DNA of 64,000 bases, from IMG/VR virus record IMGVR_UViG_3300009502_000040; one strand, 5' to 3'. Under the pieces are notes generated by a model that was not told the origin of the DNA, ran no database searches, and worked only from the letters and a program-made list of their open reading frames with translations. Below, one piece after another: positions 29,373 through 51,006 of this stretch. The number at the start of each line of letters is the position of its first letter. Positions within the stretch are counted from its first letter, which is position 1. The position numbers were made by a program, and so were the translations under genes. The stretch is from an uncultured virus (IMG/VR IMGVR_UViG_3300009502_000040). Lineage: Duplodnaviria; Heunggongvirae; Uroviricota; Caudoviricetes.

Positions 29373-30104
29373 TCATTTTTCACAGTAATATCTCATCTCT
29401 ATTAACTGATTTAATAAATCATTAGTATAATAGTCAGGTGATAAGCAATTACTTTTAGTTACAGGAGCTTCCACTGGATTAATTTCAATATCTTTTTGAA
29501 AAAGCCCCTTGAACAACATTAAAATTTTATATTTTGATTGGCATTCTGGGTTTGCAAGCGTTGTGACGTTATTGTAAGCCCCCCAGTTATCTATTATTTT
29601 TTCAGCCCATTTTGCCCATTCTAATGTAGTATTTCCATTCCAAAATTGGTTGGTATATCCATTTATTGTGCCTTCAGAATTTAAAAACCATTCCAAGAAT
29701 GAACATTTTGTTTCATCTTCAAACCCAATAATTGAAGTCTTTATTATTTTAGTGTTATGAACTGAATTTTCACGTGCTAATTTTTTAGACATCCCGTATG
29801 GGGTATCATCAGGTTCATCTGTATCTGGATGAATAATTTTAGCACCTAAATTATCAAGCCAAATAGGTAATTTAAAATTAACTTCATTGTACATCTTTTT
29901 ATCTGGCTTCTTCTGGGGGATTATACCAATAGCATTTATTATAAAATCTGCTTTACAATCAGACACGAACTTCTTAAAAGATTTGGAGGGCCATCTATGG
30001 ATTGTTGTAACAACAGAATATCCTTCTTTGATAAAATATCTTAGGCACATATTTCCAAGCATACCTCGGTGCCCCAAAACTAAAATTTTAAATTTTTTGT
30101 TCAT
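29373..30104 (-). CDS. RmlD-like NDP-keto-sugar reductase (SDR)
   Basis: GHRGMLG Rossmann motif, YGMSK. Confidence 0.8.
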   Translation of the reverse strand: MNKKFKILVLGHRGMLGNMCLRYFIKEGYSVVTTIHRWPSKSFKKFVSDCKADFIINAIGIIPQKKPDKKMYNEVNFKLPIWLDNLGAKIIHPDTDEPDDTPYGMSKKLARENSVHNTKIIKTSIIGFEDETKCSFLEWFLNSEGTINGYTNQFWNGNTTLEWAKWAEKIIDNWGAYNNVTTLANPECQSKYKILMLFKGLFQKDIEINPVEAPVTKSNCLSPDYYTNDLLNQLIEMRYYCEK

Positions 30105-31372
30105 AATCCAATCTTTATTTTTAATTCTTCATAATTATTTACTACCTGAATATCAGGAAAAGCGACAATATATTTGAAATTGTGATCCTTTAATTTTTCC
30201 ATAATCATCTTTGAATAGTTCCATGCAAAAATAAACACGTAATCAGCATCATATTTCATCTCATCTCTTGAAACTATTGGAATATTCATGGATGGAATAA
30301 TTCGTCCATATCTTTCTGGAGATTCATCTACAATATAATCAATTTCATTGTTGGTAAGTCCAACAATATTGCAAAACATGTTTGCCCTACCAGAAGAGCC
30401 GTATCCAATTATTTTTTTATTTTTGGCTTTCAATTCAGAAATAAAACTTTTAATTGAATTTATATGATCATTAGTCATTTTTTTAAATGTGAATAACTCC
30501 TTGTAAAGAAGCTTTTCATCTTCTATTGTTTTTTTAATTTTTTTATACTCTGTAGAAATCATAAATTTTTGCCAATCTGGTTGATTTAATCTTCCATTTT
30601 TAACATAAAATCTTATTGACCCAGAATGTGTTGGAATTTCTTCAAAATCGACCAGCGTCATTTCGAATTCTTTCATAAAATTTTGAATAGCTGTAACTGA
30701 ATAATAAAAAATATGTTCGTGATAAACATTGTCCCACTGCTTGAGCTCTACTAAATTTTTTAGATAATGAACTTCAAACACAAATATTCCATCCGAATCA
30801 AGAACATAGTTGATACCTCTTAAAACGCTTCTAATATCAGATATATGAGCGAATGTATTGTTTGCAATAACAACATCAAATAGACCACCCCAACCAAGGC
30901 TTTTAGCTTTCCTATAATTGAAATACCCAAGTTCAACCTCCAAACCTTTTTCTTCCGCTAAATCAACAATATTTTTGGCTGGGTCTATTCCAACAATGTT
31001 AACTTCGAGTTTTTCTAAAGGTTCCATTAGCACACCATCATTACACCCAATTTCCAAAACCGTTTTATCTCTTAATTCAAGCTTATCGTATAAATATTTA
31101 GCAACATCCTTAAAGTATCCGCTTAAACTCACTGATGATGAATATCTATAATCTTTAAATAACACATCTGGGTTAATTATTGAATCTGTTTGAACCAATC
31201 CACAATTAGGGCAAACCATCAAGTTAAGATCATATATTTTTTTATCATCTTCTCCTTTTTTTGGAAAATATCCAGCTAATGGAACTTTACCAAGTTCCAA
31301 AACATTTTGCAAATTTGAATTACAAACTGCACACTTTTTCCTTTTTTTATATGTTCTCGTTAGAAAGATCAT
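30101..31372 (-). CDS. NDP-hexose C-methyltransferase
   Basis: CAVC/CPNC Zn site, LEIGCNDG, NTFAH, YHEH, THSGS, GYG..GRA. Confidence 0.85.
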   Translation of the reverse strand: MIFLTRTYKKRKKCAVCNSNLQNVLELGKVPLAGYFPKKGEDDKKIYDLNLMVCPNCGLVQTDSIINPDVLFKDYRYSSSVSLSGYFKDVAKYLYDKLELRDKTVLEIGCNDGVLMEPLEKLEVNIVGIDPAKNIVDLAEEKGLEVELGYFNYRKAKSLGWGGLFDVVIANNTFAHISDIRSVLRGINYVLDSDGIFVFEVHYLKNLVELKQWDNVYHEHIFYYSVTAIQNFMKEFEMTLVDFEEIPTHSGSIRFYVKNGRLNQPDWQKFMISTEYKKIKKTIEDEKLLYKELFTFKKMTNDHINSIKSFISELKAKNKKIIGYGSSGRANMFCNIVGLTNNEIDYIVDESPERYGRIIPSMNIPIVSRDEMKYDADYVFIFAWNYSKMIMEKLKDHNFKYIVAFPDIQVVNNYEELKIKIGL

Positions 31373-33297
31373 AATTTTGGTTCTTTTTTGAAAAGATAGA
31401 AATCAGAATCAGATAAATAAAATTTAACTTCTATCTTATTTATATCACGCATTTCAAAAGTTGTTTTAGAAATATGTGGGGTTGAATTATTTAATATTTC
31501 ATGTTCTCGATATTTTATATCGTTATCGTAAATATATTCAATTTTAAATTTTTCCTTGAAATCACCAGTTATTGTGAACGTCTGGGTGCTAATATTGAAT
31601 TTACAATTTATATTATTTTTAACATCTGAGAAATCGAATTGTGTATACCATGGAAGTGGTCTTGTACTATCATTAACACGATTTTTTTCAATCAATGACA
31701 ATCCAGGATACTGATAGGCAACTTCAGTTTTTGTGACTGCTTGCTTTTTAAATCCTTTAACCATAGTGTTTAACCACATATCGGCTGGTTCCCAAGGCAT
31801 ATTCATTTTAGATAAATAAAAATTTCTTGACTCTTTGGTTAATAATATACAGTGTGCCCGTACTATTTGATCAACAATATAATATTCATTCTCTTCAAAT
31901 ATAATCCCTCCATTTAAATATTGTTTACCATAATCTTCAACCCACCAATAATTCCCACCAAACGAAAATTGATAAATACCATTTTCAGAGCAGTACTTCA
32001 AAACTTTTTTTATTAGCATATAAAATTCCAACGGTGATGTTCGTAAAACACAATCACATTCACATAATAATAGTGCATCCAAATCTTCAGTGAAGTTATC
32101 TTCAATTGCCTTTTTAAATGATAAATATGCACCATAATGACCTTCATAATATGGTAGCCCAAGTCCATCCGTACATGGCGGAAATTCACCTTTAAATGGT
32201 ATGTTTACTTGCTGAATATATTTAATACCATTAAATATTGTTAATTTTTTAATAGATTCGATAGATTTTTTTTCCCTTTCGCTTTCAACATCAGTCAAAA
32301 TATGAACAAGCTTAACATTTAAATTTGAACTTGGTTCAAATTTAATCTCATTTTTAATTGCATAAATCATCCCGCTGTCGTCAGTTAGCCAAGTATCATT
32401 TTTCATTAGCACTTTAAAATTACTTTTGGTTAATTTATCCACAATTTTAGATACTTGCTTATTATCATTATCATGGAATTCAATTGCAAATTTTCTTACA
32501 ATAGATAAATCCAAAGCTTCAATTATTTCATATTCGTTGCCTTCACAATCTATCTTCATGAAGTCTATTTTTGTAATATTGTTGTCCCGAATGAAATCAT
32601 TCAAACCAACAACTTTACATAATCGCCTTTCAAATAACCCATCACTTGAACTTCCTTGGGTATGATCATTAATTTTAGACTGCACCCCATCATATCTAAT
32701 ATCAATATAAGACTCATGACTTGTTGCTCCAACCGCAACATTATATAATTGAATTTGTGGTGTAGACTGACTTCTGGAATTTGTAAAATCATATATTTCT
32801 TTTACTGGCTCAAAAGAATAACATGTTTTAGCTTTTTGATAATGTACTGACATCATAGAAAAAATTCCAACATTGGCTCCGATATCAAATACTATATCAT
32901 TTGGTTCAACTTTTACATCAGCAAACGAGTATTCATTCCCAAAAAATATTTCATATAATGGAACACCCAACAGACCGAATGGTAATTTAGCATCTCTACC
33001 ATAATCTTTAAATATATTCAATGTGTCTTTTTCCCTTATATCTTTGGTGCCGTTATTATAAATATCCTTCGAAAAAATCAAATTTTGATCCATATCATAC
33101 ACATTAAAAATTTTGTATGATACATCTACGAATTCTGTGATAAAGTACGAAACGTCTTTATTGAGTTCCATATAATTTTTATAAAATGGTAATTTACTAT
33201 GTCCATCCAAAAAATGACAGTTAACTTTTTTAATTTCTTCATCACCTTCCCATTTGAAATGAACTGTATTTTCTGAAAGTTTATATAAATTTATCAT
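31369..33297 (-). CDS. FkbM-family methyltransferase fused to glycosyltransferase-like domain
   Basis: DIGANVG, FEP, KIDCEGNE; downstream GHYGAYLS...ECD...PAD GT-A-like segment. Confidence 0.8.
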   Translation of the reverse strand: MINLYKLSENTVHFKWEGDEEIKKVNCHFLDGHSKLPFYKNYMELNKDVSYFITEFVDVSYKIFNVYDMDQNLIFSKDIYNNGTKDIREKDTLNIFKDYGRDAKLPFGLLGVPLYEIFFGNEYSFADVKVEPNDIVFDIGANVGIFSMMSVHYQKAKTCYSFEPVKEIYDFTNSRSQSTPQIQLYNVAVGATSHESYIDIRYDGVQSKINDHTQGSSSDGLFERRLCKVVGLNDFIRDNNITKIDFMKIDCEGNEYEIIEALDLSIVRKFAIEFHDNDNKQVSKIVDKLTKSNFKVLMKNDTWLTDDSGMIYAIKNEIKFEPSSNLNVKLVHILTDVESEREKKSIESIKKLTIFNGIKYIQQVNIPFKGEFPPCTDGLGLPYYEGHYGAYLSFKKAIEDNFTEDLDALLLCECDCVLRTSPLEFYMLIKKVLKYCSENGIYQFSFGGNYWWVEDYGKQYLNGGIIFEENEYYIVDQIVRAHCILLTKESRNFYLSKMNMPWEPADMWLNTMVKGFKKQAVTKTEVAYQYPGLSLIEKNRVNDSTRPLPWYTQFDFSDVKNNINCKFNISTQTFTITGDFKEKFKIEYIYDNDIKYREHEILNNSTPHISKTTFEMRDINKIEVKFYLSDSDFYLFKKEPKL

Positions 33298-34250
33298 ATT
33301 GCAAAATAGTTATTTTTTTCTAAAATATCAATAAGTTCAGCCTTTGAAACAACAAAATCTTTGCTACTATATTCATCATTTGGAAATTCTACAGGGTGTT
33401 CAACACCAGTTTGAATTTTTTCATAATGCATATAAAAATTGTTTGTTTCTATATCATAATTAACTCGTGGCATTTCTTCCTTCGAAATCATAAGTTCATG
33501 AATTTTTTCAGATATTCTTGGTTCACCAAGTTTATATGTAAGCCCAAATTTTTCATTGTAAATATCAAATAGGTCCTTAATTCTAAAACTTTTAACAAAT
33601 GGTATAACATTGTAACCATTTAACGATAATCCAAATTCAATAAGCTGCATTGCCCGTTCAATATCCAACATAAAACGTGTCATTTCATCTGAGTATAATG
33701 TAAGGGGATATTTTTTCTTTATACTATCCCATATCAAGGGTATGATACTGCCAGTTGAGTTGAATACATTACCATAAATTGCAGATGATAATTTTACTGG
33801 AAGCTTAGAAACACCAGCATTAACTATAAATAATTCCCCTGCGACAAATTTCATGGAGCCGTATAGTGTTGTGGCTGATCTGGACTTATCTGATGAAATA
33901 AAACATGCGGATTCCATTTTATTCTCCTCCGCACATCGTCTTGAATTTATAGCACCATCAATAATAACTTTAACCGCTTCTTCATAATTCTGATCAACTG
34001 CGCCAATTTGCTTTAAACTGGCTGTAAATATACCAATATCGCACCCATCTGACATACGCTTCATAAGATCAAAATTTCTAACATCACCGATCTTACAGAT
34101 AATATTTGGAAATTCTTTTTTTAAGTAATAATGCTTAGCTTCATCCCTTGAAAAAACTACAATTTCATTTGAAGAATGATATCTTCTAACAAGGTTGCTT
34201 CCCAAATAACCAGCTCCGCCAGTTATAAAAATTCTTTTACCATTTAACAT
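33294..34250 (-). CDS. NDP-sugar 4,6-dehydratase (PseB/CapD-like)
   Basis: TGGAGYLG, FSRDEAK, GDVR, SSDK, YGSMK, YGNVFNSTGSIIP. Confidence 0.88.
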   Translation of the reverse strand: MLNGKRIFITGGAGYLGSNLVRRYHSSNEIVVFSRDEAKHYYLKKEFPNIICKIGDVRNFDLMKRMSDGCDIGIFTASLKQIGAVDQNYEEAVKVIIDGAINSRRCAEENKMESACFISSDKSRSATTLYGSMKFVAGELFIVNAGVSKLPVKLSSAIYGNVFNSTGSIIPLIWDSIKKKYPLTLYSDEMTRFMLDIERAMQLIEFGLSLNGYNVIPFVKSFRIKDLFDIYNEKFGLTYKLGEPRISEKIHELMISKEEMPRVNYDIETNNFYMHYEKIQTGVEHPVEFPNDEYSSKDFVVSKAELIDILEKNNYFAI

Positions 34251-34264
34251 CAGCAGTTATTATT

Positions 34265-35275
34265 TTAAAGTATCTCAAATTCACTATGTGATTTAAATAA
34301 ATCTATGGTGCTTTGTGATATTTTTTTCCCATCAATTTCAATATTTATTTCATATTCGTTTGACAGGAAATCACCGTAAGTTATGGCAAATTCATAAAAT
34401 AAATATTCGATCCGCTTAGTACATGATGTACTACTTATAAATCCAGACTTTTTTTCTTCAATAAAAATTTCGATATTAATTGGTTCTAAAATATTAAATA
34501 CAAGTAAGTAAAATTCATCAGTATCTTTTTTTACCCCAATATGGAATTTAGCTTTTTCTAAAGAAAAAGCATCAAAAGGTGAATTATTTTCCACTATTTC
34601 GCTTCCAGACGACTTAAATGTTTTATCGCCTTCGACATCCATAGTTGAATAGAAATCTGATGAATATTGTTCTGGTGTAAATTTAGAAAATAACAACATC
34701 GATTTTTCTATTTTATAATCTAAATAATTTTCGGCAAACCCCAGATTTTTGGAATATTCATTAATATCTATAGAATCAAGAAAATTACTTCTGGTACTAA
34801 ATGCAGATAATACCATATTGATATTATCTTTGAAATAAAAAAGCACACCTTCAAATTTGTCATTTCTATCCAATTCTCTAATAATATTTTTAGCCAATTT
34901 TTTTGTTATAATAACATCATAGTTTAAAATTATAACATTATCGTATCCAAGTCTTTTTAAATAATCAACGCCACGTTTCCACTGCTGTAATGCAGTATAT
35001 CCATAGTCATCCTTTACAATGGACATCTTAATTTTGGATTTTTCATGAATTCTCCAGAAAAATAAATGTTTTTCTGGGTACTTAAAAACTGGGTTTGATG
35101 AATCATAGATATAGTAATTAACTTGGTTTTGAATAAAATTTAATGGATAATGTGCATGAACACAAATATCAGCATCCAATGTCATTTCTTTTATATTCAA
35201 AACGCATTCTAATAATGCGGATTCTTTCTTAGGCGTATTACAATATGACGTTATTAAGAAACAATTTTTGTTCAT
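34265..35275 (-). CDS. Putative glycosyltransferase-like protein, paralogue 1 of 3
   Basis: CFLITSYC.T, ICVHAHYPL, YYIYD..N, DYG, NYD shared with 35842 and 36837. Confidence 0.55.
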   Translation of the reverse strand: MNKNCFLITSYCNTPKKESALLECVLNIKEMTLDADICVHAHYPLNFIQNQVNYYIYDSSNPVFKYPEKHLFFWRIHEKSKIKMSIVKDDYGYTALQQWKRGVDYLKRLGYDNVIILNYDVIITKKLAKNIIRELDRNDKFEGVLFYFKDNINMVLSAFSTRSNFLDSIDINEYSKNLGFAENYLDYKIEKSMLLFSKFTPEQYSSDFYSTMDVEGDKTFKSSGSEIVENNSPFDAFSLEKAKFHIGVKKDTDEFYLLVFNILEPINIEIFIEEKKSGFISSTSCTKRIEYLFYEFAITYGDFLSNEYEINIEIDGKKISQSTIDLFKSHSEFEIL

Positions 35276-35839
35276 TTATATAAATTTTTTTACTCTTCTA
35301 TCATTTCGTCTCATCACAAATGTTATCCCAGTTTCATGAATTGGAAATGTCATTATATTTAATTGTGGGTAATTTAAATGAATATGATCCACGATTTTAT
35401 AGGAATTTGAGCAATAAAAATCTTGAGTCAATCTATTATCTATAGGGTCTGAATCGTGAAATATTATTATTCCAAATTCATTCAATATTTTAAGCGAGTT
35501 TTCAAAATCTTTCAAAACTTGCGGAAACCGATGATCACCATCAATAAAAATTATATCATACGTTTTTTTATTCTTCGAAAAAAACTCATCACTTGTCATA
35601 TTATTAAATATAATTCCATCCTTATCATCCATTTTATCTTCATAATCAACAGCTTCACACACATCAACTTCGTTTCTAATATTGTGTATGCACAATCCAT
35701 TTTCTACGCCAACTTCCAAATAAGTTTTACAATTTGTTAATTTAACAATCCACTTTATTAAATTGGAGTAGTGATCTTTCGTTGGTAAGTCAGATAAAAA
35801 ATCGATATCATAAACTTTTGAATATCCGTATTTGTCCAT
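35276..35839 (-). CDS. Class I SAM-dependent methyltransferase (Methyltransf_24-like)
   Basis: YLEVG, DIIFIDGDH, GIIIFHD. Confidence 0.85.
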   Translation of the reverse strand: MDKYGYSKVYDIDFLSDLPTKDHYSNLIKWIVKLTNCKTYLEVGVENGLCIHNIRNEVDVCEAVDYEDKMDDKDGIIFNNMTSDEFFSKNKKTYDIIFIDGDHRFPQVLKDFENSLKILNEFGIIIFHDSDPIDNRLTQDFYCSNSYKIVDHIHLNYPQLNIMTFPIHETGITFVMRRNDRRVKKFI

Positions 35840-35841
35840 AT

Positions 35842-36840
35842 TTAATTTTTATTTTTTAATAAATCATGCTCAATTGCAGATAGGCAAAATGTGTTTATTG
35901 TATCTTGTTCTATAAGCTCACCATTGATATATAATTTGAATTCATGGTCCTGTTTGATAAAAACCCCGTTAACATATTCACCAATATATTTTTTGTAAAT
36001 ATCATCCATAGTTAACCCAGTATCTACAAATATTGGATCAGTATCGATAATAAGTTTTTCTTTAAAAACTTCTCCATCCAGACATAGCTTTAAATGAATA
36101 GGTTTTTGAATATTATAAAAGAAAATTTCAAATATATTTGTATATTTTTTTTCATTATTCTCCCATAAAATACGTTCACCAGCATGAAAATAGTAGCCAT
36201 TTCTTTCATATCTTTCAAATTCATGCGGCTGATGCCTTATTTTAGAATCAACAAAATCGTTAAGGTATAAATTATTACCATAAAATTTATTGAATATGTA
36301 TTTTTCAGCATACCAATATTCATTCATTGATATATAATCTTCAACACTCATACTTTCAATAATTGGCAAATACTTTTTCATGTTATATGACATCAAAGTT
36401 GCACTGGTTTCATCTTCTTTCAATAAAAAAAACACTCCATCATAAATTTCACTTTGCTTGATCTTTAGTAAAAGCTCATCTGACACAATGGTGTCATAAT
36501 TTACAACGTGAATAATATCATATCCCAGATCATATAAATATAATGATCCATTTCGTATTTGGTATATTACAGTGGAGCCATAATCATGTTTAAGCACATT
36601 TAGCTGATGTGTGAGGAACTTTCTCCACATAATGATACTTCGGGTGCCTAAAGGTATTATAGGGTTCGTAATGTCATATAAGTAATGATTTACTTTACTT
36701 TGAATTTCAGCATCCAATGGATAATGCGCATGGATACAAATATCAATATTGTATTTTTTTAAGCTATCAATTGTTGATATTAAAATATCCATTTTTTCCT
36801 GTGTATCACAATATGATGTAATTAAAAAACATTCTTTCAT
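35842..36840 (-). CDS. Putative glycosyltransferase-like protein, paralogue 2 of 3
   Basis: MKECFLITSYCDT...NYD. Confidence 0.55.
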   Translation of the reverse strand: MKECFLITSYCDTQEKMDILISTIDSLKKYNIDICIHAHYPLDAEIQSKVNHYLYDITNPIIPLGTRSIIMWRKFLTHQLNVLKHDYGSTVIYQIRNGSLYLYDLGYDIIHVVNYDTIVSDELLLKIKQSEIYDGVFFLLKEDETSATLMSYNMKKYLPIIESMSVEDYISMNEYWYAEKYIFNKFYGNNLYLNDFVDSKIRHQPHEFERYERNGYYFHAGERILWENNEKKYTNIFEIFFYNIQKPIHLKLCLDGEVFKEKLIIDTDPIFVDTGLTMDDIYKKYIGEYVNGVFIKQDHEFKLYINGELIEQDTINTFCLSAIEHDLLKNKN

Positions 36841-37844
36841 ACGTATATTATTTTTGCATTTTGAATACCTTTAACAACAATATCATTTAGAATTTCAATA
36901 TTATTAATTTTGATGGAAGCCTCATTTTTTTCATATAATGATACGAAATTATCATATGTTAAATGAGTTTCAAATGATTCAAAATTCATATTACCTACGA
37001 CATCCCCCTGAATAAGATTGGATGCTACACCACCCTTCTTAAAGCATGTGATTGACTCATCACCGATATTTATTTCAATGCTGATATTTTCTGATATATT
37101 ATAAATCAAAATTTCAAATAGCCCAAACGGTAGGTTCTGTACCATACGCTGACCAATAAATATCCTAAATGCATCGAACTTCAGTATATAAAATAAGTTT
37201 AATGATATTTTTTGATATAAATCAAATCCTTCTATTAAATTATTTGTTGCATCCATCACACTTTCTGATGTAATTTTAACGATATTATACTGCTCATTTG
37301 AAATGAGTTGATCCAAGTATTCTTCCATAACCCAATCACTTCGCATACTTAAGTAATTTTCTAAATTAATTTTGTCAAAAAATTCAAGTATATTATTTGG
37401 TTTAACTGAAAAAAAATATGGAACTAATCCATTCTTATAATAAAAAACACCATTATTATCGATTAAATATCTTGAATTCTCTTTAAAAAAGTTATCAGTA
37501 AACCCAGCATCATAATTAACAAAATGAACAGTATCATACATTTTGCTTAAAAATAATGATCCCCGCTTAAATTGATGTAGTACGGCAAGACCATAATCAT
37601 CATTTTCAACCGACAATGTTCTATGAATAGTTGCTTTATAGATATAAACTTTTCTATTAACTATAGCATTATCTGAGTCATAAATATAATATTCTACACT
37701 TTTTTGTATTGAAGATGGTAAAGGAAAAGTTGCATATATGCAAATGTCAATATTGTGTTTTTTTAAATTTTCAACTGTTTCGCATAATACATTAAGTTTA
37801 TCCTGAGTGTCACAATATGACGCAATTAAGAAACATTCTTTCAT
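36837..37844 (-). CDS. Putative glycosyltransferase-like protein, paralogue 3 of 3
   Basis: MKECFLIASYCDT...NYD. Confidence 0.55.
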   Translation of the reverse strand: MKECFLIASYCDTQDKLNVLCETVENLKKHNIDICIYATFPLPSSIQKSVEYYIYDSDNAIVNRKVYIYKATIHRTLSVENDDYGLAVLHQFKRGSLFLSKMYDTVHFVNYDAGFTDNFFKENSRYLIDNNGVFYYKNGLVPYFFSVKPNNILEFFDKINLENYLSMRSDWVMEEYLDQLISNEQYNIVKITSESVMDATNNLIEGFDLYQKISLNLFYILKFDAFRIFIGQRMVQNLPFGLFEILIYNISENISIEINIGDESITCFKKGGVASNLIQGDVVGNMNFESFETHLTYDNFVSLYEKNEASIKINNIEILNDIVVKGIQNAKIIYV

Positions 37845-37879
37845 AATAACTTATAATCAAAAATAATAATTAAGTTTTT

Positions 37880-37889
37880 TAATATATAC
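37880..37889 (+). promoter_or_regulatory. TAATATATAC late-promoter-like motif (representative of about 16 copies)
   Basis: ATATATA core about 10-35 nt upstream of structural and leader-bearing genes. Confidence 0.6.
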
Positions 37890-37907
37890 ATAAAATTAAA
37901 TATTTAA

Positions 37908-38498
37908 ATGTCATTATTAAGACAGAGTTCTTCAGATCAAATGAATCGTATTGTGAATCAAATTCACAAAGAGATAGGTGGAGATATTGGTGAGGTTACC
38001 GCTGGAGTTGGGTCCAATTCAGCTAATTTTATAGCTATTAAAAATCCAATTAACAGAAAAATTGACACATATGATAAATTTACTAAACGGGATAATAGAT
38101 TACAAACCAGAGCATTTGTTTCAAAACATGTTAATAAACCTATAGTTAAAAAAATGTTGGATGGGAGTCAAAAAATAAAACCAAAAGGAAATGCAAATGA
38201 GGGATCGAGATATATTTTGGATTTAGATACAAAAGATGTTAAATTAGCTGGAAACTCAGAATATCCAGTTGGAACAAAAATAAAATTTAAAGATGAAGGT
38301 CGAGAATTAACTGGAACATTAACTCACCCATTTGGATTTTGCCAAGGAGATGTCGGTGTTATTCTTGATGAAACTGGAATTTTTCAAGATGATAGATGTT
38401 GCTTAAGAAATCACGAATATACTGTTATTGATCCTGAAATGTTAAATGATGTTGACAAATTCAAGAAAAATAGAACATTTAAAAGATTTGATTTATAA
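37908..38498 (+). CDS. Hypothetical protein with RFDL tag
   Basis: ends KNRTFKRFDL*. Confidence 0.8.
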   Translation: MSLLRQSSSDQMNRIVNQIHKEIGGDIGEVTAGVGSNSANFIAIKNPINRKIDTYDKFTKRDNRLQTRAFVSKHVNKPIVKKMLDGSQKIKPKGNANEGSRYILDLDTKDVKLAGNSEYPVGTKIKFKDEGRELTGTLTHPFGFCQGDVGVILDETGIFQDDRCCLRNHEYTVIDPEMLNDVDKFKKNRTFKRFDL

Positions 38499-38533
38499 AA
38501 ATTATATATACTAAAAAACATAATCCATAAAAA

Positions 38534-39250: not shown

Positions 39251-39268
39251 TTCTCTCTCAAATAATGA

Positions 39269-39303
39269 AAAACGTGGGATAATCTTAAGATTCCCCACGT
39301 TTT
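39269..39303. terminator. Bidirectional terminator-like hairpin
   Basis: AAAACGTGGG...CCCACGTTTT between convergent genes. Confidence 0.65.
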
Positions 39304-40286: not shown

Positions 40287-40413
40287 TTTTATTTTTATTT
40301 TTATATTCAGATATCAATTTTTCTATAAATTTAGATTTATTTAAACTTAAATCATTAAGATATTTTACCAGTTCTGTTTTTAATGAAATAGATATTTTTG
40401 TTTTATTCTTCAT
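40270..40413 (-). CDS. Ribbon-helix-helix protein (47 aa) overlapping endonuclease start
   Basis: Manual translation MKNKTKISISLKTELVKYLNDLSLNKSKFIEKLISEYKNKNKNDSDK. Confidence 0.78.
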   Translation of the reverse strand: MKNKTKISISLKTELVKYLNDLSLNKSKFIEKLISEYKNKNKNDSDK

Positions 40414-40464
40414 ACGTTATATATTAAATATAAAAGTAGTATTTTGCTACTTTTTCATACCGTT

Positions 40465-41940: not shown

Positions 41941-42050
41941 ATAGATTTATTATTTTATTCTTATATATAAATACAAGAACAAAGTTTAAAACATTTTTAG
42001 CCAAAACAGACCTAACCTGAATAATATATACAATAAAAAACATAGCTTAA

Positions 42051-42428: not shown

Positions 42429-43655
42429 TTACGTTATTTCTACAAGAATACCATTTACAAAATGATATGTGCTTCCACCAACTGTAAATTGCCTTGTCAC
42501 ACCAGCCTTTTCGGTTGTTCCAGACATCGTTATAAAACCAGAATCACTATATACACTTTTACCTGATGCCATTTTAATGTCACTATTTTTATCGAAAAAT
42601 GTGTTATTTGAATAGGTTATTGCCGATGATGATTTAACATCTGTATAATATGTAGATGCTGAAAGGGTTATTCCAGATGAATATGTTACTGCCGATAAAA
42701 CTTTAGCATCAGTGTAATATGTAGTGGCTGATAGTGAATATGTGACAGCCGATGTTGTAGCCGACAATACGACTATTTCAGTCTCAGTTTTTGTATACGT
42801 TGCACCAGTATAATAAAAAGATGGAAAAGATTTTAAATCAGTTCCACCAGTACCAAATGATTGATCTGAGCCATTTGTACCTCTCATTTTAATTCCAGTA
42901 ACAAGCCCACCAGCAAGACTAAGCTGAACACTACCATTAGCTAAATTGTAGAGGTTTTGAACTGTCAATCCAGGTTCTACTCCACCAGTAAACCCATATG
43001 AAGAATATCCATTTGAAAATGTTTGACCAGATACGACCATTGAATAACGACCTGACGGAAGAGCCCCTTCAGGATCATCAGTATTAATCCAATTTACATA
43101 CAAAGCGGCAGCCGCACCAGCGGTACCATGTAAAAATGATTTACCAATTACATTAAAATCTCCATCATAAGCCGATGTTGAAACTATTTTTCCAATATAT
43201 ACATTTCCACCATTAGCACTTTGAATATTTCCGCTTCCAATATCATTCCAATATGTTGCCCCAGTTGTCCCCGACATGGCAGTTCCACCACTGGTTAAAC
43301 TCATCCAAGTTATCCCATTATATCCAAAGAAATCTTTAGATGTGCTATTGTATTGTATTGATCCCTCAGTGTTTCCATCTGCGGAACCAATAGTTATAGC
43401 ACCAGCAACTCTGAATTTTTCCGTACTTGTGCTTGATGTTCCAACTCCAACTTTACCACTATCATAATAAATATCACTTCCTATTTTTTTCCAATCGCTG
43501 GTTGGGCCTGTTCCACCACTGGAAACATAAATAATATTTCTAAGTTGATCCATAACCCATAATCCACCTGAGTCGTATCCAATATATACGTGACCATCTT
43601 CTGGTGGATATGGTAAAGAAGCGTTCTCTATAATGGCAATTTTTTGGAAACTCAT
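42429..43655 (-). CDS. Gly/Ser/Thr-rich virion (tail-fibre-like) protein
   Basis: IYY..GKVGVGT repeat type, G.IQYN....F.GYNG.TW motif, many S[GA]xT units. Confidence 0.65.
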   Translation of the reverse strand: MSFQKIAIIENASLPYPPEDGHVYIGYDSGGLWVMDQLRNIIYVSSGGTGPTSDWKKIGSDIYYDSGKVGVGTSSTSTEKFRVAGAITIGSADGNTEGSIQYNSTSKDFFGYNGITWMSLTSGGTAMSGTTGATYWNDIGSGNIQSANGGNVYIGKIVSTSAYDGDFNVIGKSFLHGTAGAAAALYVNWINTDDPEGALPSGRYSMVVSGQTFSNGYSSYGFTGGVEPGLTVQNLYNLANGSVQLSLAGGLVTGIKMRGTNGSDQSFGTGGTDLKSFPSFYYTGATYTKTETEIVVLSATTSAVTYSLSATTYYTDAKVLSAVTYSSGITLSASTYYTDVKSSSAITYSNNTFFDKNSDIKMASGKSVYSDSGFITMSGTTEKAGVTRQFTVGGSTYHFVNGILVEIT

Positions 43656-43705
43656 GTATCGTAGATTATTTTGTAAACTATATATAAAAATTTACATTAA
43701 ATAAT

Positions 43706-44164: not shown

Positions 44165-44166
44165 TT

Positions 44167-46629
44167 TTATTTTATTTTTAATTCAATATCTAAAATTTTA
44201 TTGAATTTTAGAAATGTTATAATTATTTTGTCCGTTAAAGCATGTAAAACATCACCAGGTGATGTCCAAATAGAATATTCCTTCGCAAATGTCACATCAG
44301 TTAAACATTGATATATTTTATATGGATTGTTACCATCTTTAATTTGAACGTGTAGTTCTGGGCTTCTATCTTCACCACTGTAATTAAAGGTTATTTTATT
44401 TTTTTCAATTTCATATGTTATATTAAATAATTCAGGAGTTATGCTAACATCATCTTTGGTATATTTATCAAAATCAAATGAAATTATTGGCTCAGCAACC
44501 AAGCTACCTTTGATAATTTGTTCAACAACCATATTAGGTGAAATATTTTTAGTGCATTCAAAATGTCGTTCAGTATCTCTATACTCTGGGCACCAATCCC
44601 ACGTTCCACGATCAAACTCATGTGAATTAAAACACCCATTGCATACATTAAAATTATGAACATTTATATTTCCAGTTTTAAATTCACAAATTGGATCACT
44701 GAAGCCAGAAATCATTAAAACTTTCTTACCCAATGCCCAAGCAAGCCAACTCAGCCCAGAACCAATTCCAATAAAAAACTCACAATGAGAAAGCTCATTA
44801 ATCCTATGCTCGATTGGGAAATTACCAGTTCTATTAATAATATTTTTTAATTTTGTTGCTTGCTTACTAATAGCAACTACTTTATATCCCTGAACATTTA
44901 GCCAGTCTACTAAAATTTGCCACCCAATATTCGAATCTTTGTATGGATAATGCCAATGTTTAGCATTAGCAGTTGAAAATTGGGCAATGCATACGTATTT
45001 TTCTTTGATTGGTCTGGTGCCAATTGGTGCGTTAACTTTAGGGATAATTTCATTATATGGTAATCCTAAAATATCAGACGCTGTTTTTTGCAATGGTATT
45101 CTTTTATAATCATTTGGATTTTTTACTTTACTCCAAGGCTGAAACCATCCAATAATATATCTTGCATAAATCCCAGTCAAATTATCATCTGGCTCAACAA
45201 AATTTATATTTGGATATTTTTTAATAAACCACTTATTCCAAAATGTGCTACAATACATTTCGCAATCATGAATTTTTCTAAACTCTTCAACATATGGAAA
45301 CCAAGCTAACGTATCACCAATAGATTTACTATCAAGCTGGACAAAAACTCGTTTACCTTTTAAATTAAAATCATGAGATTCGATAAGATTTCCGCCTCGC
45401 ATAACATTTACTTGCCATTCTCTATAATAAACAATATTTGTTTTTGCATGAAGAACTACAGAAGAATCAACAGTTTCGAGGGTTGTTTTATAATTGTTTA
45501 TCGGGTTCTGTTTATCAATAAATTCTACATCAAAATTTATTCTTTTATTTGCGGTTACTTCAAATTTAGCCCCGTCAACAAAACTAATATTATAATTATA
45601 TTTTTCAGGTAAAATACTATCATATTCACTATACATTAAATCTTTGAATTTGTCAGAATCATCATTTTCATTTTTTCCTTTTAATCTGAAAGAAAATTTA
45701 TCTATAATAGTTTTGACATCAGTATCAATATCGCCAGTAAGATATGTTACTATTGAATCATATGAGTCTCCATATGTATCCAATTTTTTCAAAAACACTG
45801 GGATATTATATGAAAGTGCTTCTCTTACCGCCAATGGATTAAGTTCTAACGTGCTTGGATGTATTAACATATCTGATGCTTGATAGAAAATATCTACATC
45901 AGAACGCTCCCCCCACACAAAGCAATTTTCAGGTTTATCGGTTAATAACGGTTCCCAATAATCTTTAAAATTAGTAGCTTGATTTCCTATAAAGTGAAAT
46001 TTTACTTTATAATCTATCATTTTTTTAGCAATTTCAAAAACATATCCTTGGTTTTTAAATTCATTGAAAAGCCCAACATTTAAAATATGTAAATATTCAG
46101 GATCAAATTCGAGTTTATCGATTGATTGACTTTTATTTATTTCTGGTGATGTAATTGGATATTCTGCCAAAGTTGACGGAATATTAAATTTGGAATATTG
46201 CTTCATACTATGCTGAGAAACAAACATAAATTTATCAGGAAAAAACTTTTTATCATCAACGTTAAAGGTTGATGTATGAGTACATTCGATAATTTTATAT
46301 GGTCTGTCTGGACGATAAAGCCATTCAGCATGCTCTTGACGCATAAACATTTCTGGAATTTCTTCCATGTGAATTACATCGGGTGATATTTTTTCAATAT
46401 ATTCTGAAAAATGATCACGAAGTTCTTCTGTTTCATGCCGCCCAAGGGTAATAAAATGATCACCAAGCAATTCAATTAGCTTATCACGTTGAACAACATA
46501 TTTCCATGCTAATTGTTTATATTCAATAACATATACATCATGAATATCTTTTAATAATTCAACCCGTTTTAATACAACTTGAGGCATGCCTCCCGTAGAC
46601 ATATGACCAGCCAAAAACAATATTTTCAT
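44167..46629 (-). CDS. GT4-type glycosyltransferase fused to Aah/TibC-type (autotransporter O-heptosyltransferase) domain
   Basis: N-terminal STGGMP...KNQ...ELNPL..REA (GT-B/GT4); C-terminal IGDTLAWFPY, AKHW, FIGIGSGLSWLAW, SGFS and four-Cys CNGC...WCP...FECTK. Confidence 0.85.
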   Translation of the reverse strand: MKILFLAGHMSTGGMPQVVLKRVELLKDIHDVYVIEYKQLAWKYVVQRDKLIELLGDHFITLGRHETEELRDHFSEYIEKISPDVIHMEEIPEMFMRQEHAEWLYRPDRPYKIIECTHTSTFNVDDKKFFPDKFMFVSQHSMKQYSKFNIPSTLAEYPITSPEINKSQSIDKLEFDPEYLHILNVGLFNEFKNQGYVFEIAKKMIDYKVKFHFIGNQATNFKDYWEPLLTDKPENCFVWGERSDVDIFYQASDMLIHPSTLELNPLAVREALSYNIPVFLKKLDTYGDSYDSIVTYLTGDIDTDVKTIIDKFSFRLKGKNENDDSDKFKDLMYSEYDSILPEKYNYNISFVDGAKFEVTANKRINFDVEFIDKQNPINNYKTTLETVDSSVVLHAKTNIVYYREWQVNVMRGGNLIESHDFNLKGKRVFVQLDSKSIGDTLAWFPYVEEFRKIHDCEMYCSTFWNKWFIKKYPNINFVEPDDNLTGIYARYIIGWFQPWSKVKNPNDYKRIPLQKTASDILGLPYNEIIPKVNAPIGTRPIKEKYVCIAQFSTANAKHWHYPYKDSNIGWQILVDWLNVQGYKVVAISKQATKLKNIINRTGNFPIEHRINELSHCEFFIGIGSGLSWLAWALGKKVLMISGFSDPICEFKTGNINVHNFNVCNGCFNSHEFDRGTWDWCPEYRDTERHFECTKNISPNMVVEQIIKGSLVAEPIISFDFDKYTKDDVSITPELFNITYEIEKNKITFNYSGEDRSPELHVQIKDGNNPYKIYQCLTDVTFAKEYSIWTSPGDVLHALTDKIIITFLKFNKILDIELKIK

Positions 46630-46679
46630 CTACTATATTTTTTTTACTCATATAGATGAAAATATTATAAATGTTTGAA

Positions 46680-48161
46680 TCAGATTACAATAAATAACAA
46701 ATATTGTGTAATACTATTTCCGCATTTATCTGCAACATAAAACTTAACACAATAATAGCCAGCGACTGTAATATTGCCAACTTCACCTGATATATTAGCT
46801 ACTAAAACACTTAAGCTATCTTTCGTTATACTTAAATCAACGGCATCTGTAACGGAGTCAATAATATTAAGAATAATATCAGCATGTGTTATTGAAGATA
46901 AACTAAAACCTGATAAACTTAAAGTAAATCCACTGGTTATAGTTATACCTGAAGTTATCCCAGTGATACCAGAATATGTAGTAGTATTTCCAGTCATTGC
47001 AGTTAATACTCCAGCATAATATGCTATTACAGGAGGTGCATCATCAACATAAATTGTTGAAATTACATTTGTTGTTAAATTTCCAGCAATATCGCTCACA
47101 CTTAATGTCAATCGATACATTCCCTCTTCTGTAATTTCAGTTAATTCTGGAATACTGCCAAATTTTTGTAGAGTAAGAGTAATGGCTGATATTGGAATAT
47201 TACCATCCCAAATATCAGTAACCCCACTTACAAAATAATCATTCAATTGTGATAATGTCCACCCAGTTATTGAATCGTGAATTAAATGCAAATATGCTGT
47301 AGATGGTGCGGTTATTCCTGTATATGGAGCATTATAATGGATAACAGGCGGTGTTGTATCGGTTCCACCAGATTGTACACAATTGGTATAAACATAATCC
47401 TGATCTAAATATCTATGATCAATATCAGCCCACACAAACATCATTCTTGCATAAACCTGATTTTTATCAAATTCACTTAAAAAAGTAAGTGTATACATTT
47501 TTGTGGTGGTATAAATTAGTATTTTTTTAGGATTTAGTTCTTCTGGAATAAATGATGATATTGAATTAAATGGAATATATGCCACAGGGTCTGAATTTGA
47601 ATTCAAAACTTTGAATTGAGTTGATCCACAACCATTTTTGTCAGTTACAACATTATTCCAATATAAATTTGAAAATGTAGTTCCAGTATTAATTGTTACT
47701 GGCTCAATGACTTCAATATCAGCCTGAAGAATATCCAAAACAACATCATAGTCAAGGTTATTATTAAGATAAATCTGAGGTAATTTGCTTCCAGACGATC
47801 CAGTTAATATCATCAATTTCCCAATTGGTCTTATGGTAAGTGGGTCATCTTCAAAATAATATTCAATGTTATATGAATCTTTTTCATATCTATAGTATGG
47901 GTCATTAACAGTATCGTATGTAACTTTTATCATTAAAAATGTAGATGTCTGTCCTACAAATCCACATATTAATGGCTGATCCATAAGACCACTCTTAAGC
48001 ACCATTCTGCCTCTATACTGAGCATCATATGTAATAGCCAAATCTTCTAAACTAAGTTTAGCTGTAACGTTAGGTCCTTCCGTTGCGATAAATGTACAAT
48101 TCCAGTTCTTTATACACTTCTCAGTGGGTTGTAAAAGGTCATTTGGAACAATCTTAGTCAT
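46680..48161 (-). CDS. Putative virion protein with Ig-like DTTPPVI / DDAPPVI domains
   Basis: Start moved to MTKIVP (48161), after ATATATA motif; D.AGN / D.CGN Ig-fold ends; SGxT/TGxT repeats. Confidence 0.65.
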   Translation of the reverse strand: MTKIVPNDLLQPTEKCIKNWNCTFIATEGPNVTAKLSLEDLAITYDAQYRGRMVLKSGLMDQPLICGFVGQTSTFLMIKVTYDTVNDPYYRYEKDSYNIEYYFEDDPLTIRPIGKLMILTGSSGSKLPQIYLNNNLDYDVVLDILQADIEVIEPVTINTGTTFSNLYWNNVVTDKNGCGSTQFKVLNSNSDPVAYIPFNSISSFIPEELNPKKILIYTTTKMYTLTFLSEFDKNQVYARMMFVWADIDHRYLDQDYVYTNCVQSGGTDTTPPVIHYNAPYTGITAPSTAYLHLIHDSITGWTLSQLNDYFVSGVTDIWDGNIPISAITLTLQKFGSIPELTEITEEGMYRLTLSVSDIAGNLTTNVISTIYVDDAPPVIAYYAGVLTAMTGNTTTYSGITGITSGITITSGFTLSLSGFSLSSITHADIILNIIDSVTDAVDLSITKDSLSVLVANISGEVGNITVAGYYCVKFYVADKCGNSITQYLLFIVI

Positions 48162-48229
48162 GGAAAAATATTTTTCTTTATATATAAAATTACCAAGCTG
48201 ATTTTTTATATATATCTTCAATGAAAGAA

Positions 48230-48550
48230 ATGAAGTATATTTTAACAATGAAAACATTTGAAGGAAAAAAACGATATTCATTTAAAGAGTATCAATTTCA
48301 AATTTTGGATTATGTTTTATTTTACAATAAAGACACTAATTATTTAGGGCTGGTTAAGGTTGAGAATATGTCAAGCTCTGAGATTTCATTTGAAGATATT
48401 ATACCTAAAAAATCAGACCCATCATTTAATTTTATAACATACGACATTAAACAAGAGGTACTTGCAGATGTTTTAGGAATATTTGATAATGAAGAAGAAG
48501 CAATTAAAGCATATCATCAAAAAATGGCTGAAAATAGATTTGATTTGTAA
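48230..48550 (+). CDS. Small protein with MKY..TMKTFE leader and RFDL tag
   Basis: ends MAENRFDL*. Confidence 0.75.
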   Translation: MKYILTMKTFEGKKRYSFKEYQFQILDYVLFYNKDTNYLGLVKVENMSSSEISFEDIIPKKSDPSFNFITYDIKQEVLADVLGIFDNEEEAIKAYHQKMAENRFDL

Positions 48551-48564
48551 AAAAAATAAATAAC

Positions 48565-51006
48565 ATGCAATATATTTTAAATAAAAGATTTGATGGAACA
48601 TTCACGATGAACTGGGTTGGAACAGAAATATCAACTGCACAGAGAGATATAAAAACTTTTTTATCCGACCCAACACTTGGAATAAAGTCGATCACTAAAT
48701 TCAATGATACTATTCGTGGAGCAACAACAGGCGGTACATCTCAGCACTATTTTGAAAGGTTATTTTCTTACAACAATGCCCGTAGTGGAGAAACTTGGAT
48801 TGAAAATATTCCAATTTCTGCAATTACAATGGCTGTGTGTGATTTAAATAATTTTCAAATTGTACTAACATATTACAGAATTGATACCGATGTAAAAACA
48901 CCAACTCTTTCTATTTCTGATATTGTAATCGAAGGCACATATGATATTGAAACTTCAACTGGAAATGTTGAAATTCCTTCAGGAAATACGTTTATTATTA
49001 TCACGCCTGTTGATATTTATAAAATATTCAAAATTACAGATTTCGAAATATATGGAATAAACACTGATCAGCTTAATATTAAATATAGAATAACTCAAGA
49101 TGGTGGTAGGCATTACACCGAATGGGAGCCATTAACAATGGAGAACTTATCGACTATAAGAATTAATCCGCTCAGGTTTGCTCAGATGGAGTATTTGGTA
49201 CAGAAAAAAGCTGGGTATGCTGGGTATGCAAAAATATATGACATTATTTTAGTTGGCGATTTTCAGAATATAAATTCAAATTATCTGAAATTAAACAGAT
49301 ATGGGATAAAAGAAAATTGTGCTCATCCAACAAACGGTGGTACAAGCGGAACAAGTGGAACTGCTGGAAGCGGGGTTGATGTTTGTTTTTCAGGGATGAC
49401 AGTAAAAGGATGCACAACAGATCAAAATTATAATATGGATTGGAGCACTCAATTTTTAAGCTGTTATTTAAATTCCAATCCTTACAGTTTAACATCGAGT
49501 AACGCTGGGTCAATTGGAACCGTAAGTTCATCAATTGCTGCCGCTGGGCAATGGAAGCCATATGACTTTGAAAAAATTATAAGTTGGTACAATTTACAAG
49601 CAATGCAAGTGAGTGATATGTTTGGATGGGATGTCGATTATCTGCTTAATGATCCAGATGGTAATGGTCAAGATATGACCCTACATGAAAATCAACTTTT
49701 TAATATTGTGGATAGGCAAAAAGTTAAAATTATTGTAGATCAAAATCAATTCCCAGACAATCAAGTTCAAATTAATATTTACACACTTGATATGTTTGAT
49801 ACTTTTGAAGTTTTGATAATGAAGGATGAATTTAAAAAGGCATTTGGAATTGAAAAAAGACCAGCACAAAAAGATATTCTTAGCTTCTGTGTTACAAATA
49901 GGTTATATAGGGTTAAGCATGCTCAAATTTTTAAAGATATCATGTATGTTGGATTCTATTATAAGGTAGTATTAGAAAAATATGAAAAACTTGCCAACGA
50001 AGATGTTGTGTCATCAGCAGCTCAGTCATTATTGACGGCATTAACTACAAATACAACACTTGACGAATTATTCAAATTTGAAAATAGAGAAGATATGGGT
50101 AAAACAATTAAAAAGCAATTTAAGCCATTAACTCATGATCCATATCGTTCAGAAGTTAATCCGAAGGTTTCTATCGTAACAAAAGATATCATTAACAATG
50201 GATTAGTTATTGCAAAGAGTTACTATGATTTCAATGCACTATCAGCATCAACAAGTGCAGTCACATATTCTATTTATGATCCAGAAATGTTGGTTAGTGA
50301 TAATAGGGCATTTTCATTTTGGGTTAACTTCAACAATAAATATGATGAAAATAAAACCATAGACGAAAATGTATTTAACTCATATAATATTCCACTTAAT
50401 TCATACTATGAATTTTTAAATAATTACGATGAAATTAATAAAAGTGGTTATAAAATTTGGTACAGTAATAAAATGTTTGGTGTTTTATTAAATGATAAAA
50501 CATATTTTGTTACTTGCAACGCATTAACAACAAACCTATGGTATGGTGTATTAATTAACATTAATAATAGGCAAAGAACTGTTGATTTAAGTGTGTATAA
50601 AAGAGATTGTGAATACTATATTAAATTTTTTAACAAATCATACAATAGTGTATCTGTTGAATCATCAAATTTAACTGGAATAACATTTTATACAAGCACT
50701 GGGTATAAGCCTGTAAAAAACACCGATATATTGAAAAATATAGTAAACACATCTTTGCGTCAGCTTTACAGTCAAGAATACGATAATGTAGGACCAATAA
50801 GTTTCATGGTTGATCAAACTATTACAGTAAATGCCTCCAATATTAAACTTACAAATATTAGAATTTTTGATGCTATTGTTCCAGATGAAGAAAAGACTAA
50901 TATTCTATGCCAAAATATCATTCATGATGGTAATCATTTAATTCTTGGGGATAATGCTAACAGACAACTTTATACCACAAATATACAGACTAAAAGATGG
51001 GAATAA
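48565..51006 (+). CDS. Large virion protein containing a T4 gp14-like neck/head-closure domain
   Basis: Central FGWDVDY...D..LHE and FG..KRPAQKDILSF..TNRLYRV resemble gp14 motifs; lectin-like C-terminus. Confidence 0.55.
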   Translation: MQYILNKRFDGTFTMNWVGTEISTAQRDIKTFLSDPTLGIKSITKFNDTIRGATTGGTSQHYFERLFSYNNARSGETWIENIPISAITMAVCDLNNFQIVLTYYRIDTDVKTPTLSISDIVIEGTYDIETSTGNVEIPSGNTFIIITPVDIYKIFKITDFEIYGINTDQLNIKYRITQDGGRHYTEWEPLTMENLSTIRINPLRFAQMEYLVQKKAGYAGYAKIYDIILVGDFQNINSNYLKLNRYGIKENCAHPTNGGTSGTSGTAGSGVDVCFSGMTVKGCTTDQNYNMDWSTQFLSCYLNSNPYSLTSSNAGSIGTVSSSIAAAGQWKPYDFEKIISWYNLQAMQVSDMFGWDVDYLLNDPDGNGQDMTLHENQLFNIVDRQKVKIIVDQNQFPDNQVQINIYTLDMFDTFEVLIMKDEFKKAFGIEKRPAQKDILSFCVTNRLYRVKHAQIFKDIMYVGFYYKVVLEKYEKLANEDVVSSAAQSLLTALTTNTTLDELFKFENREDMGKTIKKQFKPLTHDPYRSEVNPKVSIVTKDIINNGLVIAKSYYDFNALSASTSAVTYSIYDPEMLVSDNRAFSFWVNFNNKYDENKTIDENVFNSYNIPLNSYYEFLNNYDEINKSGYKIWYSNKMFGVLLNDKTYFVTCNALTTNLWYGVLININNRQRTVDLSVYKRDCEYYIKFFNKSYNSVSVESSNLTGITFYTSTGYKPVKNTDILKNIVNTSLRQLYSQEYDNVGPISFMVDQTITVNASNIKLTNIRIFDAIVPDEEKTNILCQNIIHDGNHLILGDNANRQLYTTNIQTKRWE

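Follow-up and report, generated by a model that had tools for sequence, protein, structure and literature searches.

A thumb-less TibC-type glycosyltransferase fusion among fibre-like genes of a freshwater megaphage, and its likely part in virion glycosylation

The window analysed here, a 64,000-base stretch corresponding to bases 1-64000 of the 74,447-base uncultured virus record IMGVR_UViG_3300009502_000040 (Caudoviricetes, ~30% GC), encodes on its minus strand, at 44167-46629, an 820-amino-acid (aa) protein that joins a GT4-type glycosyltransferase (GT) domain to a domain of the Aah/TibC type. Around this gene lie genes for Ser/Thr-rich proteins, and the end of a sugar operon (29373-37844) is 6.3 kb away. 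The contig sequence was seen in freshwater or lake metagenomes from five studies, one of them possibly its own source, and its completeness is ~10% of a predicted freshwater megaphage genome. The data sets listed for it include no RNA one, and one metatranscriptome gave no match to it, which speaks neither for nor against expression. We read it as a megaphage fragment because relatives of its DNA polymerase, found in a polymerase search, sit on contigs of up to 676 kb, and because the 735-kb phage LR756501 has the enzyme and neighbouring genes in common with it.

Structurally, the fusion protein is laid out as a GT4 domain, a TibC-type beta-barrel, a TibC catalytic domain with an iron finger, and an extra C-terminal beta domain. 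An AlphaFold model built from 91 homologues (predicted local distance difference test, pLDDT, 88.6) matched TibC (4RAP) with a template modelling (TM) score of 0.83 of the target over ~384 columns, with GT4 enzymes the next matches. The GT4 domain, of GT-B type (aa 1-311, 45697-46629), matched PF00534 (E 1.6e-10, 41.2 bits versus a cut-off of 26.4) and the folds of BshA, MshA and WaaG, while a PDB sequence search with it returned no match; it also contains an E-x7-E motif. The Aah/TibC domain (aa 344-710, 44500-45600) was delimited by TIGR04414, by alignment to 4RAP and by column counts. The TIGR04414 match spans aa 350-705 (E 2.9e-83, 279.9 bits versus a curated cut-off of 200), and TibC (4RAP/4RB4) provided the sole PDB sequence matches at E ≤0.01 (best E 5e-49). 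An earlier note on this DNA had described just such a fusion from its hallmarks and had proposed a search with the autotransporter heptosyltransferase profile; the reading frame, both domains, the motifs GDTLAWFPY and GLSWLAW and the cysteines are all present as it described. The same note had named the lipopolysaccharide (LPS) GT9 enzymes as the class that would speak against it, and membership of this class (WaaC/WaaF) was rejected on profile scores, PDB sequence matches and fold matches, with PF01075 scoring just 24 bits and the top sequence and fold matches all being to TibC. The C-terminal domain (aa 735-820, 44170-44427) is all-beta in the model's secondary structure and absent from TibC, and we discarded the idea that it is a copy of the N-terminal barrel since the two have no sequence likeness. 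PHROGs returned no match for the fusion gene or for the fibre genes.

Functionally, D110, T226, K230, R286, W305 and four cysteines are named as key residues of TibC, whose N-terminal barrel is required for TibA modification (PMC4358343). All of these are kept in the phage protein: the catalytic base as D439, the donor residues as T553, K557, R609 and W628, and the cysteines as C663, C666, C680 and C692, which are invariant across the 91 aligned proteins and form a predicted four-cysteine iron finger. The position of TibC P300, which governs stereoselectivity, is occupied by G623. The beta-hairpin thumb (TibC F265/V266) is missing, with a segment of 16 residues in this protein and in the 13 other members of its clade versus 25 residues in 13 of 13 autotransporter-linked bacterial homologues. 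The thumb of TibC is needed for its dodecamer and its activity, and thumb mutants are inactive (PMC4358343), so the phage protein would be a variant enzyme and not a canonical dodecamer. Strand-loop-strand autotransporter repeats (TIGR04415) were absent from 24 neighbouring proteins, although the profile does match a bacterial control neighbour. Judged by its sequence, the fusion is thus a variant of the bacterial autotransporter heptosyltransferases (BAHT) that lacks two defining features of that family, the thumb and the autotransporter partner.

Evolutionarily, the TibC domain belongs to a large family, with 2,921 homologous proteins of 451-1435 aa; its presence was confirmed in 563 of 601 scanned viral stretches, and we estimate ~1,800 viral stretches in all. 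Among GenBank phages the domain occurs in only 4 of 50,697 records, including the cultured Microcystis phage Mel-JY01. A tree of 239 TibC domains placed the window protein inside a 14-member phage clade (support 0.98), and we claim no donor or direction of transfer since the deep nodes are unresolved and the tree has no outgroup. We found no published description of a phage-encoded TibC, in literature that fell short of most subscription papers and of supplements, and no paper on Mel-JY01. In that phage (L006:2-3052, PP395634.1) a gene of 149 Gly-Ser/Thr-Ser triplets lies upstream of the TibC fusion, and the opposite strand is annotated instead, as hypothetical proteins. On the bacterial side, contigs of metagenome-assembled genomes (L189, L190, L196, L176) carry TibC homologues with no autotransporter neighbour and near short open reading frames (ORFs) of Gly-Ser-Ser repeats; the L176 homologue is thumb-less, and L202 has an autotransporter-like gene with a Gly-Ala-Thr collagen.

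The earlier note had placed the enzyme among Ser/Thr/Gly-rich structural genes; the richness is borne out, and the structural role is inferred, with one neck-like lead. The likely acceptor on grounds of a shared fibre module and motif counts is the fibre-like protein at 42429-43655 (minus strand; 25% Ser+Thr, 39% Ser+Thr+Gly), whose first ~50 residues are the module that heads the giant, tract-bearing Gly-Ser/Thr-Ser fibres of LR756501 (leave-one-out E 1e-10); an atlas search with it gave weak leads alone (≤0.90, TM <0.4). This family also supplies the Ser/Thr-rich gene that comes directly after the enzyme gene in the closest relatives, and in three records (G001, G002, G037) longer tracts lie 5-11 kb upstream of the enzyme. 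Upstream of the fusion gene, a conserved Ser/Thr-rich megaphage protein is encoded at 46680-48161 on the minus strand (start likely 48161 rather than 48281, by its homologues), followed on the plus strand by a core megaphage protein at 48565-51006, found in 5 of 5 megaphages, whose middle domain may be like that of the T4 neck protein gp14 and which had no match in a PDB sequence search. The latter holds the contig's sole Gly-Ser/Thr-Ser tract, four triplets at 49339-49374, where one strain has 6 extra bases. Two further minus-strand genes, outside the span treated in the earlier note, encode possible acceptors by their motif counts, a large Ser/Thr-rich protein at 58854-62327 and a 1078-aa protein at 62324-64000 whose gene continues to contig position 65560. 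The motif [ST]-G-x-[ST], which recalls the Ser-Gly-Gly site of TibA (PMC4358343), was observed 11 times versus 3.5 expected in the 42429 protein, 12 versus 1.1 in 46680, 10 versus 1.2 in 58854, 7 versus 2.1 in 62324, and 6 versus 1.1 in a fifth Ser/Thr-rich gene. As a TibC-specific sequon it was rejected, since it is likewise enriched in the TibC-less relative G033, whose neck orthologue has 3 such motifs against 5-6 in the neck proteins compared with it.

Across phages, the association of the enzyme with virion genes was assessed at loci from viral (85), metagenome (80), genome (79) and GenBank (3) sequences. These came from the 80 best matches of each alignment scan, with duplicates left in, and a tract was defined as a Gly-X-Y run of at least 6 triplets, at least half of them Ser/Thr. 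The commonest neighbours of the TibC gene are tail sheath, tube, terminase, neck, portal and capsid-like genes, named partly by eye and from our own cluster hidden Markov models; the terminase label has further backing, and the sheath and tube labels come in part from the Mel-JY01 annotation. A sheath, tube or terminase gene lies within ~10 kb at 70 of the 165 viral and metagenome loci, and tracts lie within 10 kb of the enzyme at 46/85 viral and 38/80 metagenome loci, the longest of them 637 triplets. When whole records were searched, 17 of 18 TibC-bearing records held tracts. In the reverse direction, TIGR04414 was found in 16/59 tract-bearing records versus 0/47 proline-collagen records (Fisher p 4e-5), and at lengths of at least 60 kb in 10/18 versus 0/9 (Fisher p 0.009). 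The tract-bearing records stem from the first 80 loci in a list of 156, with 5 left out; for proline collagen, the 50 longest contigs were taken from the first 80 entries in a list of 131 loci, with 3 left out. Taken together, these comparisons make the Ser/Thr-rich virion proteins of the phage itself the probable target.

Relatives without the enzyme were compared as well. Of 10 records picked by polymerase alone, 3 carry it, and G032 and G033, near-complete and picked in this way, have neither the enzyme, nor tracts, nor the GT-A-like family of the operon. In the complete TibC-less megaphage G033, the orthologues of the neck and 46680 genes are followed by fibre genes and then by two DUF2827 genes (region G033:C1:214679-268576, L587-L590), which head a GT2/GT10/GT47/FkbM/dehydratase/RmlD cluster of ~20 sugar genes amid Ser/Thr-rich fibre genes. 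Proteins of the DUF2827 family are putative glycosyltransferases encoded beside trimeric autotransporter adhesins (bioRxiv 10.64898/2026.01.22.700529). The family was found in 2 of 49 records, precisely G032 and G033, and was mutually exclusive with TibC, being absent from this contig and from every TibC-bearing record searched; a third carrier, G132 (59% complete), likewise lacks TibC and tracts. The motif SLS[TA] occurs 0.59 times per 1000 residues of Ser/Thr-rich proteins in G033 versus 0.06-0.33 in the TibC-bearing sets, on small numbers. Two adhesin-linked transferase families thus appear, in one small clade, to alternate beside fibre genes.

The sugar operon lies wholly on the minus strand, with the enzymes that the earlier note had listed. 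At its head are three GT-A-like paralogues (36837-37844, 35842-36840 and 34265-35275) with no Pfam match; a Foldseek comparison of a low-confidence model (pLDDT 58.5) tentatively suggests a fold like that of GT-A enzymes or nucleotidyltransferases, in other phages the family of the first paralogue occurs in fusions with GT4/TibC domains, and the third is assigned by paralogy and such fusions. Interspersed with these and after them are a SAM-dependent methyltransferase (35276-35839, Methyltransf_24 in Pfam), a PseB/FnlA-like nucleoside-diphosphate (NDP)-sugar 4,6-dehydratase (33294-34250, by profile and sequence matches), an FkbM methyltransferase with a GT-like C-terminal domain (31369-33297), an NDP-sugar 3-C-methyltransferase of the TcaB9/mycarose type (30101-31372, TcaB9 E 1e-54) and an RmlD-like reductase/epimerase (29373-30104). 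The 3-C-methyltransferase has the Zn-binding N-terminus, SAM domain and Methyltransf_14 C-terminus of the TcaB9/MtmC type, and the RmlD-like assignment is weak (PF01370 E 2.7e-4), with 30% identity between the product and an RmlD-family protein of G033. The C-terminal part of the FkbM protein has no Pfam match and is also fused to GT4 in relatives. We tie the GT-A-like and FkbM domains to the enzyme because they are fused to it in other phages: the GT-A-like domain occurs at 51 loci, in most of them as a fusion with GT4 or TibC domains, and FkbM fusions to the enzyme likewise occur. Profile scans of the operon revealed no flippase, polymerase or ligase genes.

The claim that operon and enzyme form a single system, with a C-methyl sugar feeding TibC, finds no support. 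A pathway of dehydratase and C-methyltransferase would yield a 3-C-methyl-6-deoxyhexose. Judging by the residues of the domain, the TibC pocket would fit a different sugar, ADP-heptose, and the adenine- and heptose-binding residues are kept. Synteny of the operon extends to L417 and L420, although the C-methyltransferase was not seen in the available stretches of either. It occurs in 2 of 12 near-complete TibC-bearing records versus 3 of 4 near-complete TibC-less ones, two of these four having been found via the C-methyltransferase itself, and its closest relatives are in phages without TibC or tracts.

Genes for a heptose donor accompany the enzyme in part of its range. HldE-like kinase or nucleotidyltransferase halves, scoring below cut-offs, lie within 10 kb at 21 of 165 loci and in 7 of 18 whole records, and GmhA occurs in G001, G002 and G034 (one near-identical population) and in W02, all TibC-bearing, that is in 4 of 33 records in all and 0 of 5 TibC-less records. 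Viruses are known to encode NDP-heptose enzymes, whose purpose is left open in PMC11461863.

Upstream of both loci stands an AAAC-N18-TATA motif, found by motif scan on the minus strand at 46651-46676 before the fusion gene and at 37852-37877 before the operon. The earlier note had linked the loci through this motif; it is indeed present and enriched (22 matches versus 7.8 expected), but it is not specific to them. It precedes 8 of 74 tested ORFs (at least 100 aa), six of them unrelated to sugars, and these include PolB, ExoX-like and helicase genes and genes that we take to be DnaK-, UvsY- and topoisomerase-like. Co-regulation specific to the two loci was rejected on this basis, the motif being a genome-wide class. 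The fibre gene at 42429 is preceded by a different, AT-rich motif; an ATATATA-type motif stands before 16 of 74 ORFs (e.g. 42429, 37908, 62324), many of them structural or leader-bearing, and is likely a late promoter. The pattern would suit enzymes that are produced ahead of assembly, and it tips the balance slightly towards explanations other than virion glycosylation.

We posit, with a probability of roughly 0.6, that the enzyme primes O-glycosylation of virion fibres with heptose, and that other transferases extend the glycan. The thumb-less TibC domain would attach the first sugar, probably a heptose donated by ADP-heptose, to the serines of Ser-Gly motifs in fibres that are likely part of the phage's own virion, after which the GT4 domain and the predicted GT-A enzymes of the operon would extend the glycan, with methylation. 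Candidate acceptors are the 42429-43655 protein, the four-triplet tract of the neck-like protein, and longer Gly-Ser/Thr-Ser fibres that may lie in the unassembled 90% of the genome. ADP-heptose would be supplied by the host, with help in relatives from the GmhA or HldE halves that the phages themselves encode, and the C-methyl deoxysugar would be an optional outer decoration at most. Since the thumb is missing, the enzyme is expected to be a dimer at most, which would suit extended chains and not a ring-held beta-helix. The modification may lend stability to proline-free fibres and act as a shield for the particle or adjust how it adheres. A (Gly-Pro-Thr)10 peptide becomes triple-helical when its Thr is glycosylated (PMC11923368). 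We infer donor, acceptor, order of steps and purpose from what was computed, namely family, fold, residues, missing thumb, neighbourhood and co-occurrence.

Several results weigh against this. The thumb is lost here, although TibC is inactive when its thumb is mutated; neither a long Gly-Ser-Ser tract nor, at 10% completeness, an HldE-like or GmhA gene lies on this contig; and the promoter class of the enzyme is shared with replication genes and not with the fibre gene. The [ST]-G-x-[ST] motif was picked by eye from these very proteins, and the enrichment ratio of [ST]-G-x-T is 3.2 in the TibC-less G033 versus 4.5 here. Co-occurrence is also imperfect, with the enzyme within 10 kb at only 9 of 92 tract loci (of at least 2 kb; 61 shorter loci were dropped) and missing from 4 of 8 near-complete tract-bearing records, and with W02 carrying a TibC-like gene but no tract; moreover, the counts are not phylogenetically independent, and smaller phages of other kinds served as controls. 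Finally, at none of the 21 Hld-neighboured loci (e.g. L139, L074, L030) is the R286 column occupied by Arg, and the donor may therefore differ between copies; the loss of Arg at this adenine-binding position hints at a non-ADP heptose donor for the Hld-linked copies.

Among the alternatives, remodelling of the host surface, whether of its LPS, its capsule or its glycoproteins, as a means of keeping other phages out is unlikely, even though sugar clusters of jumbo phages have been read as modifiers of outer polysaccharides (PMC7824862), the operon varies between relatives, its promoter class is non-structural and the GT9 fold is common to TibC (PF01075 24 bits). The domain is far nearer to the protein-acting TibC than to LPS GT9s, the gene sits amid virion genes and tracks fibre sequence type, and the operon shows none of the flippase, polymerase or ligase genes scanned for. 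It is also improbable that the virion is glycosylated while the TibC-like domain merely extends or caps a glycan, maybe a non-heptose one, that is primed elsewhere, whether by the GT4 domain, by a lineage-wide phage enzyme or by host O-glycosylation. Loss of the ring-forming thumb, persistence of S/T-G-x-T in TibC-less relatives and the variable R286 column across phages would all suit such an extender, but the iron finger and the N-terminal barrel needed for TibA modification are kept, and DUF2827 takes the place of TibC at comparable sites, as would be expected of an initiating enzyme.

Glycan hypermodification of phage DNA as a shield from restriction or CRISPR seems to us very unlikely. 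Known glycosylation systems of phage DNA have a partner enzyme that hydroxylates the base (TET/JBP or a hydroxymethylase). A profile for TET/JBP (PF12851), the one of these classes searched, matched 0 of 25 records, a weak negative given that no positive control matched, and by eye no base-modification gene was recognised in the 70 commonest neighbour clusters. The idea draws on the motif shared with DNA polymerase, helicase and topoisomerase genes, on PolB lying 2.2 kb off and on the DNA glucosylation raised for moraphage GTs (PMC12619734), but it leaves the link with fibre tracts unexplained. Least credible is a role in takeover or counter-defence, in which the enzyme would glycosylate cytoplasmic proteins of the host or else drain or alter ADP-heptose: TibC does modify proteins in the cytoplasm and viral NDP-heptose enzymes have no assigned purpose in PMC11461863, but the virion context, the multi-GT fusions and the co-occurrence with Gly-Ser/Thr tracts would go unexplained.

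Heptose priming of virion fibres would have partial counterparts in several known systems. With TibC-TibA and Aah-AIDA-I of E. coli (TIGR04414, 4RAP, 4RB4, PMC4358343) the phage enzyme shares the fold, barrel, Asp, donor residues and four-Cys finger, as well as a Ser-Gly-rich partner gene downstream; it differs in its GT4 and C-terminal beta fusions, in the missing thumb, in the Gly at P300 and in having no autotransporter partner, and it is phage-encoded and known here from sequence and model. Phage transferases also glycosylate virion proteins in mycobacteriophages (Freeman et al. 2023 as cited in PMC12619734), where capsid and tail tube subunits bear the glycans at their C-termini, whereas here likely fibres and the neck of a megaphage would be modified; the passage in PMC12619734 mentions no TibC-type enzyme. 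The DUF2827 system (bioRxiv 10.64898/2026.01.22.700529) provides a second adhesin-linked putative transferase beside fibre genes in TibC-less relatives, from a family unrelated to TibC. Gly-X-Thr/Ser repeats are stabilised by O-glycans in BclA of Bacillus spores and in vent-worm cuticle collagen (PMC8968730, PMC11923368), which contain proline and use other enzymes, whereas this contig has the four-triplet tract alone. Jumbo cyanophage clusters and moraphage core GTs similarly combine dehydratases, methyltransferases and several GTs (PMC7824862, PMC12619734); there they are read as host-surface or DNA modifiers, and neither text, so far as accessible, contains 'heptos'.

A broader scheme, which we advance only tentatively, is that megaphages have a modular virion O-glycosylation, in which an interchangeable, adhesin-derived primer (thumb-less TibC or DUF2827) is matched to its fibre type (Gly-Ser/Thr-Ser collagen versus Ser-Leu-Ser-Thr) and combined with a swappable methylated-sugar cassette, giving a heptose-coated virion whose proline-free fibres would fold only if glycosylated. 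Descriptions of Aah/TibC enzymes have so far been confined to bacterial factors that mature adhesins and depend on a ring of twelve subunits. If heptose priming holds, a ring-less, multi-domain phage branch with thousands of members (2,921 proteins, ~1,800 viral stretches) would bring protein heptosylation to virus particles, would assign a role to the viral heptose enzymes of PMC11461863, and would recast many jumbo-phage sugar clusters as virion-coating and not host-LPS genes; a cultured phage that encodes the enzyme exists in Mel-JY01.

The remainder of the contig held several further features. The Family B DNA polymerase at 40465-41940 is an N-terminal half alone (491 aa), and its length is kept in relatives, as in a split polymerase; a homing endonuclease-like gene at 39285-40286 is missing from a strain in run X7 (joint 39272-40537). 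Host-like genes encode an NAD synthetase (22024-23757), a cation efflux protein (23761-24681), an IMPDH/GMP reductase (28061-29149) and a receiver domain (53390-53845), and the gene at 9028-10905 is presumably a host-type DnaK-like one. The ORF at 51583-52494 is lipoprotein-like by eye (signal peptide and Cys), with no family match in Pfam, TIGR-type and PHROGs searches. Ten mostly small and otherwise unrelated ORFs share an R/K-F-D-L/M C-terminus, a possible C-terminal address tag, among them 4351-4938, 4935-5186, 37908-38498, 48221-48550, 50997-51521 and 53856-54722 in the window and 67094-68690 and 71271-71792 on the rest of the contig. Several of them begin with MKxxKxFE-type leaders, and relatives show the similar ends KYNL and KFNL.

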